Source of the DNA: Candidatus Pacebacteria bacterium GW2011_GWA1_46_10
Lineage (GTDB): Bacteria > Patescibacteriota > Microgenomatia > UBA1400 > PJMF01
Reading direction: 5' to 3'
Assembly (NCBI GenBank): GCA_001002135.1
Contig: LCLP01000003.1
Location: 41,198 to 105,197 of the forward strand
Length of the DNA stretch: 64,000 bases
Positions 7,215-15,224 of the stretch are shown one piece after another (position 1 is the stretch's first letter; each line of letters starts with the position of its first letter). A program made the position numbers and the translations under genes. The notes beneath the pieces were generated by a model. The model saw nothing but the letters and a program-made list of their open reading frames with translations, made no database searches and had not been told where the DNA came from.

Positions 7215-8981
7215 TCATTTGACCGTCACGCTCTTGGCTAAATTTCGGGGTTTATCAGGGTTATTACCCAAATGAACTGCCAAGAAGTATGACAACAACT
7301 GGCACGGCACCACTTTGGTGATCACGTCCAAGTCGCCGCCATCTGGTGTCGGCACGTGAAGGTCAAAAAACTCATTGTTTTCGGCTGCGATGCCAATAGT
7401 CTTGGCTCCACGCGCTCGCACTTCTGCCAGGGCCACCAACAGATCGTTTTTATACTGGTCATCGCCCAAGATCCCAAACACCGGGGTGCCTTTTTTAATG
7501 AGCGTAATCACGCCGTGTTTCAATTCCCCGGCCGAAAAACTCTCACAGTGCATATAGACCGTTTCCTTGAGTTTCAAGGCCGATTCAAAACCGGTATAAA
7601 AGTGTTGACCTTTCCCCAACACAAACAAGTGTTGGTCTTTTTCCAACTCTGGAATGAGTTTTTTAATGGTGGTAAAGGTCTTTGGCTGAAAATACGTCTT
7701 AAGCTGTTTGGCGAGCGCATGAATCCGCTTTTGCGCCAGCTCGAAACGCCCGGCATAGGTCATCGCCAAAAGATACCCCCAAACTATTTGAGCAGTGTAA
7801 GCCTTAGTCGAGACCACACAAATCTCCGGACCAGAGCGGGAGAAGTAAGGGTAGTCAGAGATGCGGCTCAAGGTGGAACCGATCATATTGACAATGCTGG
7901 CAATCTTCACCCGCTCAATCTGGGCTTTGCGCACTGCCTCCAGTGTGTCGGCCGTTTCCCCGCTTTGGCTGACCACAATCAATAAGTCATGTGAATCAAA
8001 AAACGGCAAATAGCTGTCCACCTCATAAGCCCGCAGTTCCTGGGCAGGCAGGAGCGCGATGGTGCGCAGGAAGTAGGCTACCTGACCGGCCGCATAGGAA
8101 GCCGTACCGGAACCAATCGTATAGATGTTCCTGGCATGCTTCAAAGCCGCCACCAGCGGCACCAATTCCTTTTCCGAGTAACTGGCTGCCTCCACCACCG
8201 TGTGTTGCTGTTCGACGATTTCTTTGAGCATGAAGTGGTCATAGCCTTCTTTGTCGACTTTTTGTTCCACCAAATCAAGCTTTTGGCGTTTGGGATGGAG
8301 CGTTCTACCAGTCTTCACGTCGTAAAACGAAACATCACCATCGACCACCACCAGCTGCATATCATCAATATAGGTAACCGTCTCCGCTTTGCCGGCCAAT
8401 GGCAGAGTATCAGAGGCCAACAGCACTCCCTTGGGTAAATGACCCAGCACCAGTGGCGAACCATTACGGACCGCCACAATGCTTTTGGTTTGCTGATCTA
8501 AGACGATGATGGTGTTGCGGCCGGCCAGTTTTAAGAAAGCTTGCCTGACTGCTTCACGAAAACTGCTGGCTTGCTTGAGTCGATGATGAATGAGATGAAC
8601 AATCACCTCGGTATCAGTTGGAGTTTTAAACTGATACCCAACCTTGGTGAGCATCGCCTTTAATTCCAGGTAATTCTCGACGATACCGTTTTGAGCGACG
8701 ACAAACCGACCATCTGACGAGGCATGCGGATGCGCGTTTTCTTGCGTTACACCACCATGAGTGGCCCAGCGCGTGTGAGCAATCCCCATCGTGGCGTCAG
8801 CTGGCGGCCGGCTCAGTTTCCCTTCCCCGATCGCCCCGACTTTTTTCTCGAGGAAAATACCGTTTTTTGTCAGGGCTGCTACACCCCACGAGTCGTAGCC
8901 GCGGTACTCCATCCGCTTCAAGCCTTCAACTAACTGATCAGTGACTTTACCTTGTCCTTTAAAACCGATAATGCCGCACAT
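7215..8981 (-). CDS. glmS: glutamine--fructose-6-phosphate aminotransferase (isomerizing)
   Basis: 588 aa; N-terminal MCGIIG Ntn glutaminase Cys, two SIS domains, C-terminal ..KSVTVK. Confidence 0.95.
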   Translation of the reverse strand: MCGIIGFKGQGKVTDQLVEGLKRMEYRGYDSWGVAALTKNGIFLEKKVGAIGEGKLSRPPADATMGIAHTRWATHGGVTQENAHPHASSDGRFVVAQNGIVENYLELKAMLTKVGYQFKTPTDTEVIVHLIHHRLKQASSFREAVRQAFLKLAGRNTIIVLDQQTKSIVAVRNGSPLVLGHLPKGVLLASDTLPLAGKAETVTYIDDMQLVVVDGDVSFYDVKTGRTLHPKRQKLDLVEQKVDKEGYDHFMLKEIVEQQHTVVEAASYSEKELVPLVAALKHARNIYTIGSGTASYAAGQVAYFLRTIALLPAQELRAYEVDSYLPFFDSHDLLIVVSQSGETADTLEAVRKAQIERVKIASIVNMIGSTLSRISDYPYFSRSGPEICVVSTKAYTAQIVWGYLLAMTYAGRFELAQKRIHALAKQLKTYFQPKTFTTIKKLIPELEKDQHLFVLGKGQHFYTGFESALKLKETVYMHCESFSAGELKHGVITLIKKGTPVFGILGDDQYKNDLLVALAEVRARGAKTIGIAAENNEFFDLHVPTPDGGDLDVITKVVPCQLLSYFLAVHLGNNPDKPRNLAKSVTVK

Positions 8982-9321
8982 ACGTATCCTTTCGACACAG
9001 ATAGACTCTTAAAAGAGTTATTGTTACTGATAAAAATGGAAGTTTAAGACCGTGAGTGAGGGTCTTTGTATATTGGTTGTCAGACTTTGGTCAACCGTCA
9101 CCGGTTGGTTTCATCCCACAATTTATGGACGTATACTCGCCCAGAGGGTCTCCGTAGATGCTCCCCGCCATGGCGGGGGTCCGAGCTTCTCCCGATGTAT
9201 CGGGAGAAATCCCTCTTCCTCGTCTTCCCGATTTCGATTCCGTCTTATCGGGACCACACGCTCTAGTGATAGAGACTCTGCTCACCTCCTTTCGTTTAAT
9301 ACCAAGCTTAATATACCACAA
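8982..9321 (-). promoter_or_regulatory. long structured 5' leader of glmS (candidate cis-regulatory RNA; glmS-ribozyme-like GACGAGGA motif)
   Basis: 340 nt non-coding upstream of glmS on its strand containing several GC-rich hairpins (CCCGAU-N14-AUCGGG; UCUCCCGAUACAUCGGGAGA; CCCCGCCAUGGCGGGG) and AAGACGAGGAAGAGGG with downstream CCCUCU complement. Confidence 0.4.
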
Positions 9322-9352
9322 ACACCTCGTCTTTTCCCGAAAAACGAGGTGT
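9322..9352 (-). terminator. terminator hairpin after rpsR
   Basis: ACACCTCGT-N13-ACGAGGTGT 9-bp perfect stem 20 nt downstream of rpsR stop, followed on the minus strand by TTGTGGTATATT. Confidence 0.5.
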
Positions 9353-9371
9353 TGTTGTACTGCAAAACCGA

Positions 9372-9617
9372 CTACACGGTCTGCGTAAACGGTAGCATCG
9401 CTAGGTGTCGAGCGCGTTTCACGGCAGTCGCCAAGCGGCGTTGTTGCTTTTGTGATAAACCGGTCTTAGCCCGAGGCAGAATGCCACCCTGCTGGGAGAG
9501 GTATTTTTTCAGCTCCTCTGGTTTAGTATACGAAAACGTCAGGCTTTTGGGGGCCTTGGCCACGGGCTTGCGCTCATAGCGAGGTTTTCGTTCGTAGTCA
9601 GGTTTTTGATCGTACAT
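9372..9617 (-). CDS. rpsR: 30S ribosomal protein S18
   Basis: 81 aa; ..[24 protein letters not shown].. conserved S18 core. Confidence 0.9.
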
Positions 9618-9628
9618 GTGTATTCCTT

Positions 9629-10162
9629 CTAGAATGGAATGTCGTCAGAAACGTCTTCGACTGACTCAACTGCCTCATCAGCCGGCAGTTCCTCTTTTAC
9701 TTCAGCTTTCTTGCCGCGTTTTTTGCCTTTGCCTTTTTTGCTATCATCAGTCGCCGTGTCATCGGTTGAACTGACGCCTGCGCTGTCATCGGCAGGCAGA
9801 TCGCTCACCGGCGCGCCATTCCCCCTACTGGACAACAACATCATGTTGTCGATGACGATCTCGGTAATCCGACGATCATCGCCTTGTTCGGTTTTCCAGT
9901 CACGGGTCTGGATCCTGCCTTCCACAAAGACCTTGTCGCCTTTGTGTAACAGTTGACCACAAATCTCGGCCAACTTGGCCCAAGCCACAATGTTATGGAA
10001 ATCCACCCGTTCTTGTTTCTCGCCGCCATCAGCGGAGGTCCAAGATCGATTGGTGGCAATGCCAAATGAACAGACTGCAGTGCCATTCGGGGTAAACCGC
10101 AAATTGGGATCCCGAGTTAAGTTGCCGATCAGCATGGCTTTATTGAGTGAGCGTGCTGCCAT
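9629..10162 (-). CDS. ssb: single-stranded DNA-binding protein
   Basis: 177 aa; OB-fold N-terminus ([18 protein letters not shown]..), Gly/Asp-rich linker, acidic C-terminal tip DDIPF. Confidence 0.9.
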
Positions 10163-10244: not shown

Positions 10245-10592
10245 TTACTCTTTTGCTACTGGTTCCTCCCTTAAAACTGCTTCTACAAAGAGATGACGAA
10301 TGAGGTCATTATCCAAATGCACATCGCGCTCAAACAGCGGCGCTTGGTCAGTGGGAAACTCTAATACTAAATGAAGATAGTAGGCTTCAGTGTGGGTCTT
10401 GCCACCCTTGCGTAACGCATACGCCAGGGTTTTCTTCCCCCAACTGTCCTCAGAAGTCATACTACCTTTGTGTTTCTTGACCAGACCCTGCACTGTTTCC
10501 TGAACTGTTTTCAGTTCGCTGTCAGTCATATTGCCCGGAGCTAAGTAGGTCAGCTCATAGGCTTTGGTCTTGGCTGTGGTCACCAGCTTCAT
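10245..10592 (-). CDS. rpsF: 30S ribosomal protein S6
   Basis: 115 aa; first gene of the rpsF-ssb-rpsR arrangement; S6 fold signature ..YELTYLAPGNMTDSE.. Confidence 0.9.
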   Translation of the reverse strand: MKLVTTAKTKAYELTYLAPGNMTDSELKTVQETVQGLVKKHKGSMTSEDSWGKKTLAYALRKGGKTHTEAYYLHLVLEFPTDQAPLFERDVHLDNDLIRHLFVEAVLREEPVAKE

Positions 10593-10664
10593 GAGATTCC
10601 TTTGCTGTGCCTCCCGATTGTATCGGGAGAAACCAAGTTATTGTTAAGTGGTGGTATTATACCA
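10593..10664 (-). promoter_or_regulatory. rpsF promoter (extended -10 TGGTATAAT) and leader hairpin UCUCCCGAUACAAUCGGGAGG immediately 5' of the SD
   Basis: Minus-strand TGGTATAAT (10664..10656); leader contains 20-nt perfect hairpin (10608-10627) then AAGGA-5nt-ATG. Confidence 0.5.
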
Positions 10665-10708
10665 GATAGGTTTTTTCTATTCTTTTATTAACCTTTATAA
10701 TTTAAACC

Positions 10709-11653
10709 GTGGTGTTAAAAAATCGTTTTCCTCGTCCACGTAAGCGAGTCATTGACCAAGTCACCATTTCCAAATTTCTAAAAACGATCAATTTCAAACC
10801 AACTCAAGTTTTTCAAGAATGGCGACACCTACTGGCTTTTGGTGAATACCAGGGAAAACCGGCTGTTTTCAAACTCGCTTCAACCCTGAAAACTGCTCGC
10901 TATACCCAAAACGAATACCGCTGGAATGAGGCGGTCAACGCTGTTCCCAACCGTTACCGCCAACATTTCAAGGTTCCCAGCAACTATGCTCAAGGTACTT
11001 GGCAGCGGCTGTTCTGGTTTATCGCTGATTGGTTTACCCAACGACCATTCATCGAACGTGACAGTTCAAACACTTCACTAATCGCGCAGAAATTGGCGCT
11101 CATTACCCAAGCCAATCGGGAAATCAGTCTTTTGCCTCTCCCAGATCAAAGTGAATTCATGCAACAGCGGCGCTCGGATGAACCAATTGGTGAACGCCTA
11201 TTCCGTTCCGCTCGTGAGTGGGTTGACCATACTCCAGAGAACTTGACCGAGTTTCTCAATATTATCAAAAACAGACGCCACAACCTCAAAACCTGTGTCA
11301 ACCACGGTGATTTCGCGCCACGGCAACTGTATGACTTGGGCAGTGCCGTTGGCATAATTGACGGTGAACATGCTGGCGCCTTCGGCCCACTCTATTACGA
11401 CGTGGCCTATTTTTATATTCGCTTGCGCAACGATCATGACGCTCCAGAGTTAGCCCGCCAATACCTCAAGAAGTACCAAAAACTACTGCCTGCAACCGAG
11501 CAGAAAAGTTTCTGGTCAGAACTTAAACCGGTTTTATGCCAACGATATATTGGTGATTTGTGGGGCGACAGTCGCCACAAGCGAAAAGATCCGGTTAAAA
11601 TGAAAAAACTGTATCAACTGGGTCAAACAATTTTACAAGACACGGTTATTTAA
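10709..11653 (+). CDS. phosphotransferase family protein (APH/choline-kinase-like fold)
   Basis: 314 aa; catalytic-loop-like VNHGDFAPRQL and IIDGEHAG (IDxExxG) motifs of the aminoglycoside-phosphotransferase/protein-kinase-like superfamily. Confidence 0.6.
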   Translation: MVLKNRFPRPRKRVIDQVTISKFLKTINFKPTQVFQEWRHLLAFGEYQGKPAVFKLASTLKTARYTQNEYRWNEAVNAVPNRYRQHFKVPSNYAQGTWQRLFWFIADWFTQRPFIERDSSNTSLIAQKLALITQANREISLLPLPDQSEFMQQRRSDEPIGERLFRSAREWVDHTPENLTEFLNIIKNRRHNLKTCVNHGDFAPRQLYDLGSAVGIIDGEHAGAFGPLYYDVAYFYIRLRNDHDAPELARQYLKKYQKLLPATEQKSFWSELKPVLCQRYIGDLWGDSRHKRKDPVKMKKLYQLGQTILQDTVI

Positions 11654-14267: not shown

Positions 14268-14606
14268 TTGGTGTGTATAATCGTGTGTATGAAAAAGCGA
14301 GCGACCTACAAAATTACTCCCCAGCAAGCGCTCGAACTGCGCGACATGGCTGAGGCCGCTCAGTATCATGCCTTACCTACTGATACACGCATCCAAGTCA
14401 AAATGCCCAAAGCCGTGGTAAAAACTCTCGATGCCCTATTTCCAGATGTAAACCGGAGTCAACTGCTGACGAAATTAGCCCTCGACGCCATTGTGCGAAA
14501 ACTGCGGTTTATTGATAACCCAGAATTGGATATGTTGGTGGACAGCGAGCAATCAGATCTGGATGATTTATGGGAGTACCTAGAGGAAAGAGAGCGAAAT
14601 GTATAA
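14268..14606 (+). CDS. putative antitoxin of MazEF/PemIK-like module
   Basis: ~106-112 aa, acidic C-terminus (DSEQSDLDDLWEYLEERE), stop overlaps toxin ATG by 8 nt; probable true start MKKRATYK at 14289. Confidence 0.5.
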   Translation: MVCIIVCMKKRATYKITPQQALELRDMAEAAQYHALPTDTRIQVKMPKAVVKTLDALFPDVNRSQLLTKLALDAIVRKLRFIDNPELDMLVDSEQSDLDDLWEYLEERERNV

Positions 14607-14931
14607 AGCTGGTCAAGTGTTGCTGATCAAATTCCATCCCAGTTCTGGTAACGAACTGAAAAAATACCGACCAGCAATAGTCGTCAGTGATGTCGCTCAA
14701 AATGCCGACAAACGCTTTGTCCTTATTTCGCCATTAAGTACTCGCCAACCACGCAAAAAAAACTCCTTAGAAATAGAGCTTACTGACGTTAATTTTTTAA
14801 GAGAAAAAAGCTACACCATGCTGTGGTACTTGAGAACTCTTGACACCAGACGCGTGAAATTTGTGCTTGGTTCTCTGCCACCGAAAACAATGAAAACTAT
14901 CCAAAAACGACTGCAAAAAATGTTTACCTAA
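14599..14931 (+). CDS. MazF/PemK-family toxin (mRNA interferase)
   Basis: 110 aa; MYKAGQVLLIKFHPSSGNELKKYRPAIVVSDV...FVLISPLST matches PemK/MazF SH3-like fold N-terminus (GD/Q-VxxVxF...KxRPxVVVS). Confidence 0.75.
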   Translation: MYKAGQVLLIKFHPSSGNELKKYRPAIVVSDVAQNADKRFVLISPLSTRQPRKKNSLEIELTDVNFLREKSYTMLWYLRTLDTRRVKFVLGSLPPKTMKTIQKRLQKMFT

Positions 14932-14946
14932 ACTTACTTGGCCAGC

Positions 14947-15153
14947 TTATGTAACACCACCTGATTGACCAGCAACAGTGTGAGAGTTTTCTTCCAGCTT
15001 TTTAATCGGTGCGGCAATTACAATTCTCTCTGCCGCTATCCTAGCTGTTTCTAACTCCTCACTCGCCTCCTGCAGCGCTTGATTGTATGCATCAGCAACT
15101 GCTCGTGACGGTCGCGAGTTCCCTAGTTCTGGATTTGGTTTTCGACCAAACAT
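14947..15153 (-). CDS. small hypothetical protein
   Basis: 68-aa ORF convergent with the toxin gene; no motif recognised. Confidence 0.3.
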   Translation of the reverse strand: MFGRKPNPELGNSRPSRAVADAYNQALQEASEELETARIAAERIVIAAPIKKLEENSHTVAGQSGGVT

Positions 15154-15224
15154 GTTTATTACTATACATCAAAATAGTTCAAAGTAAAGCAAAAATTCTG
15201 TTTTTGATCACTTTATTACAAAGT

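Follow-up and report, generated by a model that had tools for sequence, protein, structure and literature searches.

The glmS leader at positions 9067-9273 of the minus strand is most probably a glmS ribozyme-riboswitch working by the known GlcN6P mechanism, a reading to which we assign a probability of roughly 0.88. Positions are those of the window, that is, the whole stretch of 64,000 nt of DNA that was analysed, and the source genome belongs to the CPR/Patescibacteria. In an Rfam covariance-model search the leader matched RF00234 (glmS ribozyme) with 58.7 bits against a gathering score of 37, at an E-value of 5.5e-11 over the whole window and of 4.7e-13 in a local search, and the match covers all model positions (1-167 of 167). 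The element immediately precedes a genuine glmS gene and shares its strand, the right position for this family, and its sequence and structure together establish its membership: cleavage site, core, all three pseudoknot strands (P2.1, P2.2 and P3.1), P3 and P4/P4.1 are present, and the nested helices were all recovered by an unguided MFE fold. The score itself is moderate, and the Rfam alignment shows a G-G mismatch in place of one P4 pair. A standard Rfam annotation would suffice to label the element.

An earlier note on this DNA had suggested that the leader may be a divergent glmS ribozyme and had proposed the RF00234 search, the positive outcome of which, above the gathering score and over the full model, upholds that reading and makes its alternative of some other GlcN6P-responsive element superfluous. 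The 390 nt that it counted between rpsR and glmS are intergenic (8982-9371), and the sequence elements that it picked out there have their places in the ribozyme: CCCGAU-N14-AUCGGG is P1, the core sequence AAGACGAGGAAGAGGG stands at 9226-9211 of the minus strand, and the CCCUCU tract, complementary to AGAGGG, completes P2. The family consensus that it quoted, GACGAGGA followed by a GGAGG that pairs with CCUCC, is consistent with Rfam's consensus line. Its perfect hairpin UCUCCCGAUACAUCGGGAGA and GC hairpin CCCCGCCAUGGCGGGG are both real, but they lie outside the canonical core, as P2-loop insertions (H1 and H2 in Table 1) that recur at two sites in relatives.

Table 1. Positions of the glmS ribozyme, its parts and its flanking features in the window
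Feature	Position	Strand	Evidence or remark
rpsR (ribosomal protein S18)	9372-9617	-	NCBIfam TIGR00165, 63.8 bits
13-bp hairpin directly 3' of rpsR stop	9321-9352	-	RNAfold -16.7 kcal/mol
Candidate extended -10 element TGgTATATT	9310-9318	-	read from sequence; no -35 element
Stand-alone Shine-Dalgarno (SD)-like motif GAAAGGAGGUGA	9282-9293	-	12-nt perfect complement to canonical 16S 3' end
glmS ribozyme	9067-9273	-	full-length Rfam RF00234 match
Predicted self-cleavage site	between A9262 (A-1) and G9261 (G1)	-	Rfam alignment, between model positions 12 and 13 (A↓GCG)
P1 hairpin CCCGAU / AUCGGG, 14-nt loop	9227-9252	-	Rfam alignment and fold
Core strand GACGAGGA	9217-9224	-	identical to Rfam consensus
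P2.1 5' strand C9222, G9221, A9220	within 9217-9224	-	pairs with UCG 9182-9184
P2 5' strand AGAGGG	9211-9216	-	pairs with 9143-9148
H1 insertion hairpin	9188-9207	-	between P2 5' and P2.1 3' strands; perfect 8-bp stem, -12.3 kcal/mol
P2.1 3' strand UCG	9182-9184	-	pairs with C9222, G9221, A9220
H2 insertion hairpin	9163-9178	-	between P2.1 3' and P2.2 3' strands; 6-bp GC stem, -11.1 kcal/mol
P2.2 3' strand UACG	9153-9156	-	pairs with C9260, G9259, U9258, G9257, just 3' of cleavage site
G9152, A9151	directly after UACG 9153-9156	-	equivalents of B. subtilis G67, A68
P2 3' strand CCCUCU	9143-9148	-	pairs with 9211-9216
P3 hairpin	9126-9143	-	Rfam alignment and fold
P3.1 pseudoknot	GUAUA 9132-9136 (P3 loop) with UAUAC 9068-9072	-	strand complementarity
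P4/P4.1 peripheral domain	9077-9121	-	purine-rich internal loop; 6 of 7 P4 pairs and 6 P4.1 pairs in Rfam alignment
GUGA (GNRA) tetraloop	9098-9101	-	in P4/P4.1
Hairpin AAGACC-CUCACUCAC-GGUCUU	9046-9066	-	directly after ribozyme; -5.8 kcal/mol, z -2.89
Pyrimidine-rich tail ACUUCC-A-UUUU-UAUCAG	9027-9043	-	sequence and MFE fold
glmS own weak SD AAAGGA	8987-8992	-	sequence
glmS ATG	8979-8981	-	protein start MCGIIG common to all relatives
glmS (glutamine--fructose-6-phosphate aminotransferase)	7215-8981	-	NCBIfam TIGR01135, 533 bits against a cut-off of 418

Catalytic core, helices and P2-loop insertions

Around the predicted cleavage site, A↓GCG or G↓GCG is found in 30 of 30 CPR ribozymes parsed, and the ACGAGG of the core strand is invariant across all those examined. 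Within this strand, G9218 corresponds to the general base, which is G42 in B. subtilis and G40 in T. tengcongensis (numbering mapped from PMC11602151). The pseudoknot P2.1, whose pair identities are C38-G55 and G39-C54 (PMC11602151), has 95.8% of its cells paired in 16 relatives, and every type B or type C relative has the motif UCG(A/G)A at the place of its 3' strand. P2.1 has no covariation support because it never varies in relatives, and absent P2.1 covariation has also been reported for the glmS ribozyme family at large (PMC2258182). In P2.2, CGUG (C2-G5) and UACG form four contiguous pairs in the canonical register; the cells of this helix are 100% paired in the 16 relatives, with U:G, C:G and U:A all occurring at one pair. 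The exact register is presumably that of the crystal structures. P2.2 begins at the scissile phosphate (PMC8495972, PMC11744100).

P3.1 covaries extensively, with many compensatory variants across relatives, the inner pairs of P1 show changes on both sides among the 16 relatives, and one P2 pair changes from G-C to A-U on both sides. Taken over the 16 window-type relatives, standard pairs make up 92.5% of pair cells, compared with 24-45% when the partners are slid. The P4/P4.1 domain has an RNAfold energy of -16.3 kcal/mol, and its GNRA loop is typical of the glmS ribozyme family (PMC2258182).

The P2 loop measures 53 nt here, where the RF00234 model has 13 positions. At the H1 site relatives carry hairpins of 15-77 nt with unrelated sequences, H1 being missing in three of them (L026, L040 and L059); H2 is nearly identical in locus L001, from a 'Pacebacteria' MAG that holds the best GlmS relative (70% identical), and other relatives have hairpins of 15-151 nt at its site, again unrelated in sequence. 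Ribozymes were compared by motif-anchored parsing and by alignment with H1 and H2 excised, the parsing being adopted because the insertions misalign the 5' halves in a direct full-length MAFFT alignment. H1 and H2 are lineage-specific P2-loop insertions at two fixed sites, typical of the clade; they are predicted to be peripheral and should leave the ribozyme core unchanged. Since the sites are fixed and every insertion forms a hairpin, of unrelated sequence, selection appears to keep the core foldable.

Candidate transcription signals, predicted mechanism and a possible leader-tail pairing

The leader lies downstream of an rpsF-ssb-rpsR cluster (rpsF 10245-10592, ssb 9629-10162), of which rpsR is the last gene and whose order is the same in L001. 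The hairpin directly after rpsR reaches -19.7 kcal/mol in a 48-nt context (z -4.58; 0 of 200 shuffles as stable) and, although its U tract is imperfect, probably terminates the ribosomal-protein operon; in L001 the equivalent place is taken by a canonical terminator. A simple scan for promoters and terminators made no call on the minus strand of the leader, not even for this hairpin. The candidate extended -10 element, at which a sigma-70 scan made no call, may drive a separate glmS transcript starting near 9303; alternatively, transcription that reads through rpsR may produce the leader. In type A relatives, clear promoters of the form TTGACC-N17-TAATAT stand about 20 nt 5' of the cleavage sites. 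At the place of the hairpin that directly follows the ribozyme, L001 likewise has a hairpin, AACC-AACUCC-GGUU.

Once transcribed, the RNA would fold into P1, P2 with the P2.1 and P2.2 double pseudoknot, P3 with P3.1, and P4 with P4.1. It would bind GlcN6P, which the GlmS pathway makes, as its catalytic cofactor and cleave itself between A9262 and G9261, dropping a 5' leader of about 40 nt and leaving a 5'-OH on the glmS-coding fragment, following the published glmS ribozyme mechanism (PMC3997798, PMC8495972, PMC5473149). In Bacillus, the cleaved glmS mRNA is inactivated by RNase J1 through 5'-to-3' degradation from this 5'-OH (PMC3997798). Inactivation of the coding fragment after cleavage would here result in less GlmS synthesis when GlcN6P is abundant. 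A scan of ten large ORFs of the window turned up neither RNase J nor RNase Y.

The SD-like motif stands 20 nt upstream of the cleavage site. Its energy of -20.6 kcal/mol with the canonical anti-SD, the organism's own 16S 3' end lying outside the window, makes it the best site on both strands of the window (next best -16.9) and was reached by no shuffle (p = 0.003). No ATG, GTG or TTG follows it at usable spacing, and apart from it the window's genes are not enriched in SDs. L001 keeps the motif as AAAAGGAGGUGG with identical 21-nt spacing and a diverged spacer, and strong versions also occur in L062 and L068; the motif is missing in L030 and L044. Two other explanations of this stretch were rejected: service to an upstream small ORF, as there is no well-placed start codon and the frame is not kept in L001, and a weak second Rfam match to the CC2171 sRNA (20.6 bits against a gathering score of 75), which involves only the SD-like string and H1.

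The unguided MFE fold pairs the pyrimidine-rich tail with 9284-9293 and 9300-9305, enclosing the ribozyme. Family-wide, with tails starting from the ends of the Rfam matches and of those to a second covariance model (R1, described below), leader-tail complementarity is genome-specific: the own pairs sum to -339.7, against -270.5 +/- 15.3 for mismatched ones, and 0 of 7329 derangements reached the own sum. The window's own pairing is no better than that of shuffled or foreign leaders (rank 8 of 18, p = 0.40), and its register is ambiguous.

These properties could be explained by a different expression platform, in which the SD-like motif pairs with the tail or binds the 30S subunit, protecting or activating the uncleaved mRNA until cleavage severs the motif; the freed tail would then mask glmS's own weak SD, which has CGAAAGGA in common with the leader motif, or the mRNA would be exposed to decay. 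Such a platform would account for an anti-16S complement stronger than any other in the window and without a start codon, where genes otherwise lack SD enrichment, for its retention and spacing in L001 and its strength in L062 and L068, for the MFE pairing with the tail and for the family-wide complementarity. There is also a precedent for 5' stabilisers in the STAB-SD elements of Bacillus (Agaisse and Lereclus 1996, as cited in PMC3997798), which are likewise strong 5'-UTR SDs without a start codon, the likeness being one of sequence alone, and which share with the window motif a setting where 5'-to-3' decay matters; however, the window motif may instead be one strand of a leader-tail helix. 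The window's unremarkable rank, the ambiguous register and the absence of the motif in L030 and L044 weigh against the platform, which we consider unlikely, and which in any case would be an addition to the ribozyme explanation and not its replacement. More doubtful still is the broader proposal that CPR glmS ribozymes form a distinct subclass. Here leader sequence upstream of the cleavage site would pair with the tail downstream of P3.1 in a genome-specific helix, which would enclose the ribozyme and couple cleavage to a built-in expression platform. In the window's lineage the leader strand would be a super-strong SD mimic, and cleavage would sever a protective or anti-anti-SD element; the platform would link cleavage to translation or stability beyond RNase J attack on the 5'-OH alone, and the two P2-loop hairpins would belong to the clade-specific elaboration.

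Distribution and maintenance among relatives

Returning to the ribozyme itself, its conservation in relatives is established. Both the closest relative and about 32 of 80 related CPR loci carry it upstream of glmS, many of them with the same two-insertion layout, and it is therefore a conserved though patchy clade feature; the conservation that the earlier note had suggested examining was thus found, and its remark that the element would be notable in this type of genome did not hold, as it is common, if patchy, in related CPR lineages. L001 keeps the ribozyme architecture while its flanks have diverged, from 53% to about 40% GC. The fairly close relatives L002-L007 and L010 have lost the ribozyme from the region in front of glmS; in relatives without it there is no ACGAGG within 800 nt, and no relics were found. 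The covariance model R1, built from 18 compact relatives and biased toward the Dojkabacteria type, scores the true window ribozyme at only 17.9 bits and added four ribozyme loci (L060, L061, L063 and L068). An R1 match at 15083-15220 was rejected as a second ribozyme, as it has neither the ACGAGG core nor an Rfam match at E <= 0.1, and another at 10646-10776 was spurious. In the literature searched, we found no report tying glmS ribozymes to CPR.

The losses in this clade, together with the moderate Rfam score of 58.7 bits, the P2-loop insertion of 53 nt against 13 model positions and the P4 mismatch, might suggest a decayed relic, still recognisable as a glmS ribozyme but no longer cleaving, in a leader that is only a structured UTR. 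We regard this as very improbable: no core nucleotide and none of the three pseudoknot strands has been lost, L001 retains the same architecture despite its diverged flanks, the insertions are always hairpins at two fixed sites, which points to selection for a foldable core, and where relatives have lost the ribozyme the loss is complete. A small protein or antisense gene encoded in the leader, with RNA structure that is incidental, is extremely unlikely in spite of overlapping ORFs at 9091-9321 (minus strand, 76 aa) and, on the plus strand, at 9052-9579 (175 aa), 9158-9388 and 9066-9266, since none of them matches Pfam at E <= 0.01, in L001 the minus-strand frame ends after only three codons, the 175-aa ORF lies antisense across rpsR and the RNA-family match accounts for the conservation.

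Comparison with known glmS ribozymes and significance

Compared with the RF00234 ribozymes of B. subtilis, B. anthracis and Thermoanaerobacter tengcongensis, the glmS ribozyme described here occupies the same site in the glmS 5' UTR and has the same A↓GCG, GACGAGGA, P1, P2 with P2.1 and P2.2 strands, P3/P3.1 and P4/P4.1, including the GNRA tetraloop and the purine-rich internal loop. It differs in its additional P2-loop hairpins of 20 and 16 nt, in a substrate strand GCGUG instead of GCGCC, with the partner UACG instead of GGCG, and in its host, which is a member of the CPR/Patescibacteria and not of the Firmicutes or the other usually cited groups. Another difference is the strong SD-like motif upstream of the cleavage site.

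The compact ribozymes of the Dojkabacteria type in CPR (e.g., L012-L018) belong to the same family (Rfam 40-64 bits), lie at the same site upstream of glmS and have the ACGAGG core, the P2.1 UCG and P3.1 in common with the window ribozyme. Unlike it, they lack both P2-loop hairpins and the P4.1 hairpin, where 1 nt replaces 18 model positions, and their substrate strand GCG(G/A)CUGG allows only two P2.2 pairs in the canonical register; they also stand closer to the start codon, at about 30 nt versus 85 nt in the window.

A classic metabolite-sensing ribozyme for amino-sugar synthesis can now be placed, as predicted from these comparisons, in bacteria of the CPR, a huge uncultured group in which gene regulation has hardly been studied. 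The clade offers natural variants for ribozyme work, among them P2-loop insertions at two sites, loss of P4.1 in a sister subtype, changes in the otherwise near-invariant P2.2 helix and the putative leader-tail helix, and such variants indicate where in the fold change is tolerated. As a ligand-responsive RNA, the ribozyme could become a genetic tool or reporter for CPR biology.

The element between rpsR and glmS

The spacer separating rpsR from glmS carries all the motifs that an earlier note had listed there, on the minus strand and where it had placed them (see the table of features). That note had read them as a possible divergent glmS ribozyme, a reading borne out when all 4227 Rfam families were run over the entire window at their gathering thresholds: two matches came up, a tRNA and RF00234 (glmS). 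The latter lies at 9067-9273 (minus) with 58.7 bits, above the gathering score of 37 (E 5.5e-11), and spans model positions 1-167 of 167. In this alignment the A|GCG consensus cleavage site places the predicted scissile bond between A9262 and G9261, the core strand GACGAGGA equals the consensus with no differences, P1, P2 (GAGGG/CCCUC) and P3 are present, P4 has one G-G mismatch, and the P4.1 cap is the consensus GUGA tetraloop, while in the P2 loop 53 nt take the place of 13 model positions as a local gap. A match to CC2171 (20.6 bits, gathering score 75), made up of the SD-like string and one hairpin, was dismissed.

Features of the rpsR-glmS region and its surroundings in the window
Feature	Position	Strand	Remark
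glmS	7215-8981	minus	TIGR01135, 533 bits
Weak SD AAAGGA	8992-8987	minus	
rpsR-glmS spacer	8982-9371	minus	390 nt
ACUUCC-A-UUUU	9043-9033	minus	downstream of ribozyme
Small hairpin downstream of ribozyme	9066-9046	minus	z = -2.89
P3.1, GUAUA/UAUAC	9136-9132/9072-9068	minus	
CCCUCU	9148-9143	minus	complement of AGAGGG, 9216-9211
P2.2, C2-G3-U4-G5/UACG	9260-9257/9156-9153	minus	
Hairpin 2, CCCCGCCAUGGCGGGG	9178-9163	minus	
P2.1 UCG	9184-9182	minus	
Hairpin 1, UCUCCCGAUACAUCGGGAGA	9207-9188	minus	perfect hairpin
AAGACGAGGAAGAGGG	9226-9211	minus	
CCCGAU-N14-AUCGGG	9252-9227	minus	
SD-like motif GAAAGGAGGUGA	9293-9282	minus	20 nt upstream of cleavage site
Hairpin directly after rpsR stop	9352-9321	minus	13 bp, -16.7 kcal/mol
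rpsR (S18)	9372-9617	minus	TIGR00165
ORF of 112 aa	14268-14606	plus	no Pfam match
PemK/MazF-type toxin gene	14599-14931	plus	PF02452, 67.9 bits

Pseudoknots were checked by hand, because the Rfam model cannot encode them. In B. subtilis numbering the core runs from G36 to C75 and includes the pairs C38-G55, G39-C54 and G48-C72 (PMC11602151); GACGAGGA thus maps to G36-A43, and P2.1 therefore needs a UCG inside the P2 loop, which is found flanked by the two inserted hairpins. P2.2 begins at the scissile phosphate (PMC8495972; PMC11744100). In the window its first strand is able to pair with UACG, directly followed by G9152 and A9151, the equivalents of G67 and A68. The exact register of the P2.2 pairs is taken here from the crystal structures. 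P3.1 pairs as well, and an unguided MFE fold of the putative transcript 9306-8979 (-103.5 kcal/mol, z = -2.55) recovers P1, P2, P3 and P4/P4.1, with both inserted hairpins inside P2 and an extra hairpin immediately 3' of the ribozyme. On all features open to in silico testing, the element belongs to the glmS ribozyme family.

Two side observations concern other genes of the window. S18 matches its family model only from residue 29 on; it seems to have an N-terminal extension of ~28 residues, rich in K/R/E/P, or translation may in fact start further downstream. The PemK/MazF-type toxin gene and the overlapping ORF ahead of it (14268-14931, plus) probably form a type II toxin-antitoxin pair.

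Relatives and comparative support for the fold

The GlmS protein, used as query against 185,579 species-representative genomes, yielded 80 loci, nearly all from MAGs of the Candidate Phyla Radiation (CPR; Pacebacteria, Dojkabacteria, Saccharibacteria-labelled bins, Daviesbacteria, Roizmanbacteria, Levybacteria and Woesebacteria) and a few from DPANN archaea. The closest GlmS, at locus L001 ('Candidatus Pacebacteria'), is 70% identical, and the next ones are at most 57% identical. Directly upstream of glmS, 24 of the 80 loci score at or above the RF00234 gathering score; a custom covariance model trained on 18 compact relatives contributes four more (L060, L061, L063 and L068, each E < 1e-8) and motif-anchored parsing further loci (L051, L052, L055 and L069), for a total of about 32 among the 78 loci having upstream sequence. 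L001 shares with the window the gene order rpsF-ssb-rpsR-leader-glmS, the ribozyme layout and the terminator-like structure after rpsR.

In cores of the window type, the P2 loop reads ACGAGG, A(A)GAGGG, hairpin 1, (A/G/C)UCG(A/G)AC, hairpin 2 and then AG(C/U)AUCU(G/A)CGGA(A/G)ACCCUC. The substrate strand is GCGUGUGG in the window and in L001, L026, L030, L040, L044, L049, L051, L059, L060, L062, L063 and L069, with GCGCAAUG as a sub-variant in L052, L055 and L061. The hairpins, wholly different in sequence between genomes and 15-77 nt (hairpin 1) or 15-151 nt (hairpin 2) long, always occupy the same two sites; both are missing from L026, L030, L040 and L059 and the first from L063, and the Rfam alignment of L001 has a 107-nt insertion at the same point as in the window. 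Since the sites are fixed and the sequences unrelated, the window hairpins are clade-typical peripheral insertions and not core elements.

After removal of the two variable hairpins, 16 window-type cores were aligned, and a structure comprising the outer P1, P2, P2.1 and P2.2 was scored on this alignment. Standard pairs fill 92.5% of cells versus 24-45% with the 3' partners slid by 1-3 columns, and none of 500 column shuffles reaches the observed covariation score; excision of the hairpins and the self-chosen structure bias the count somewhat toward the fold, which makes the comparison with slid partners the more informative one. In these cores pairing is complete in P2.2 (100% of cells), one pair varying as U:G (11), C:G (3) and U:A (2, window included), one P2 pair changes on both sides from G-C to A-U, and P2.1 is invariant; according to Barrick and Breaker, P2.1 and P2.2 are too conserved family-wide for covariation (PMC2258182). 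Compensatory variation is clear at P3.1, where GUAUA/UAUAC of the window corresponds to AUUAC/GUAAU (L044), AGUUG/CAACU (L049), AUGGC/GCCAU (L055 and L061), AUUGC/GCAAU (L059) and GUUGU/ACAAC (L069). The analysis shows that the element belongs to the family by sequence and structure, stands in the right genomic setting and is under purifying selection among relatives.

Sequences flanking the ribozyme

The hairpin following the rpsR stop (z = -4.58 in its 48-nt context, with 0 of 200 shuffles as stable) is succeeded by an imperfect U tract, and in L001 a canonical terminator occupies this position; the hairpin probably terminates the rpsF-ssb-rpsR operon. This points to a separate glmS promoter in the ~60 nt before the ribozyme, where TGgTATATT (9318-9310, minus) resembles an extended -10 element and may be that promoter; the site has no -35 element and was not called by a consensus promoter scan. 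The extended -10-like element is also the first of two copies of a TGGTAT(A)TTAA direct repeat (9296-9318, minus).

The SD-like motif is a 12-nt perfect complement of the canonical 16S rRNA 3' end and the strongest anti-16S site on either strand of the window (-20.6 kcal/mol, next best -16.9), a value matched by no shuffle of the 60-nt leader (p = 0.003). No start codon follows it at usable spacing, and anti-SD complementarity is not enriched at window gene starts, a result that is only indicative as start sites were ORF-derived. Its counterpart in L001, AAAAGGAGGUGG, is likewise spaced exactly 21 nt from the cleavage site, across a fully diverged spacer; strong versions occur in L062 and L068, and none in L030 and L044. 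In the window, the motif might bind ribosomes and stabilise the 5' end in the STAB-SD manner, for which there is precedent (PMC3997798), form part of an enclosing helix, or do both.

In the MFE fold, such a helix joins the SD-like motif to ACUUCC-A-UUUU downstream of the ribozyme (segments 9284-9305 and 9027-9043, minus). Among 18 relatives, leaders (60 nt upstream of the cleavage site) are more complementary to their own tails (60 nt after P3.1) than to foreign ones: own pairs sum to a duplex energy of -339.7 kcal/mol and mismatched pairs to -270.5 +/- 15.3 kcal/mol, and none of 7329 derangements comes as low. Long leader-tail helices of unrelated sequence are found in L055 (-31.6 kcal/mol, p = 0.003), L008, L040, L044 and L059, and complementarity is also seen in L030, L049, L068 and others. 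The signal being family-wide, while the pairing of the window alone is not distinguishable from chance (rank 8/18, p = 0.40) and ambiguous in register, we report as a lead a family-level leader-tail interaction, a helix within which the entire ribozyme would lie.

The small hairpin downstream of the ribozyme precedes 60 A/U-rich nt, the weak SD and the ATG. In both L001 (2385-2398) and the window, a small hairpin immediately after the ribozyme has a loop with CUC(A/C)C. The loop complements a stretch of the upstream SD-like region, GUGAG in the window and GGAGU in L001, which could be a loop-leader contact or coincidence.

Mechanism, variants and distribution

The best-supported reading is the mechanism established for the glmS ribozyme family. 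In the CPR cell, cofactor-dependent self-cleavage would leave a glmS-carrying downstream fragment with a 5'-OH, which would then be inactivated; in B. subtilis this inactivation proceeds through RNase J1 (PMC3997798; PMC5473149; PMC8495972). Neither RNase J nor RNase Y is among the ten large ORFs scanned in the window.

The window element differs from textbook Firmicutes glmS ribozymes in its two P2-loop hairpins, its GCGUG/UACG version of P2.2, its upstream SD-like motif and its host lineage. A compact CPR subtype (~138 nt) was observed in L011-L018, L020-L025 and L036 (e.g. L012:2829-2967). This Dojkabacteria-type form lacks the P4.1 hairpin and GNRA tetraloop, 1 nt replacing 18 model positions; its substrate strand, GCG(G/A)CUGG, allows two P2.2 pairs only in the canonical register and five in a register with one bulged base, and clear promoters (TTGACC-N17-TAATAT) lie ~20 nt upstream of the cleavage site.

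Standard Rfam annotation already picks up the window element above threshold. The literature searched, with the main family survey outside it, links no glmS ribozyme to CPR, Patescibacteria or Saccharibacteria; CPR members or P2-loop insertions may already have been catalogued. In L002-L007 and L010, fairly close relatives whose GlmS is 51-57% identical, ACGAGG is missing from the 800 nt upstream of glmS and neither Rfam nor the custom model finds a match there, whereas more distant relatives carry the ribozyme, a patchy distribution across the CPR that implies repeated loss or transfer. For specialists, the interest lies in this distribution, together with the fixed insertion sites, the Dojkabacteria-type loss of P4.1 and the leader-tail complementarity.
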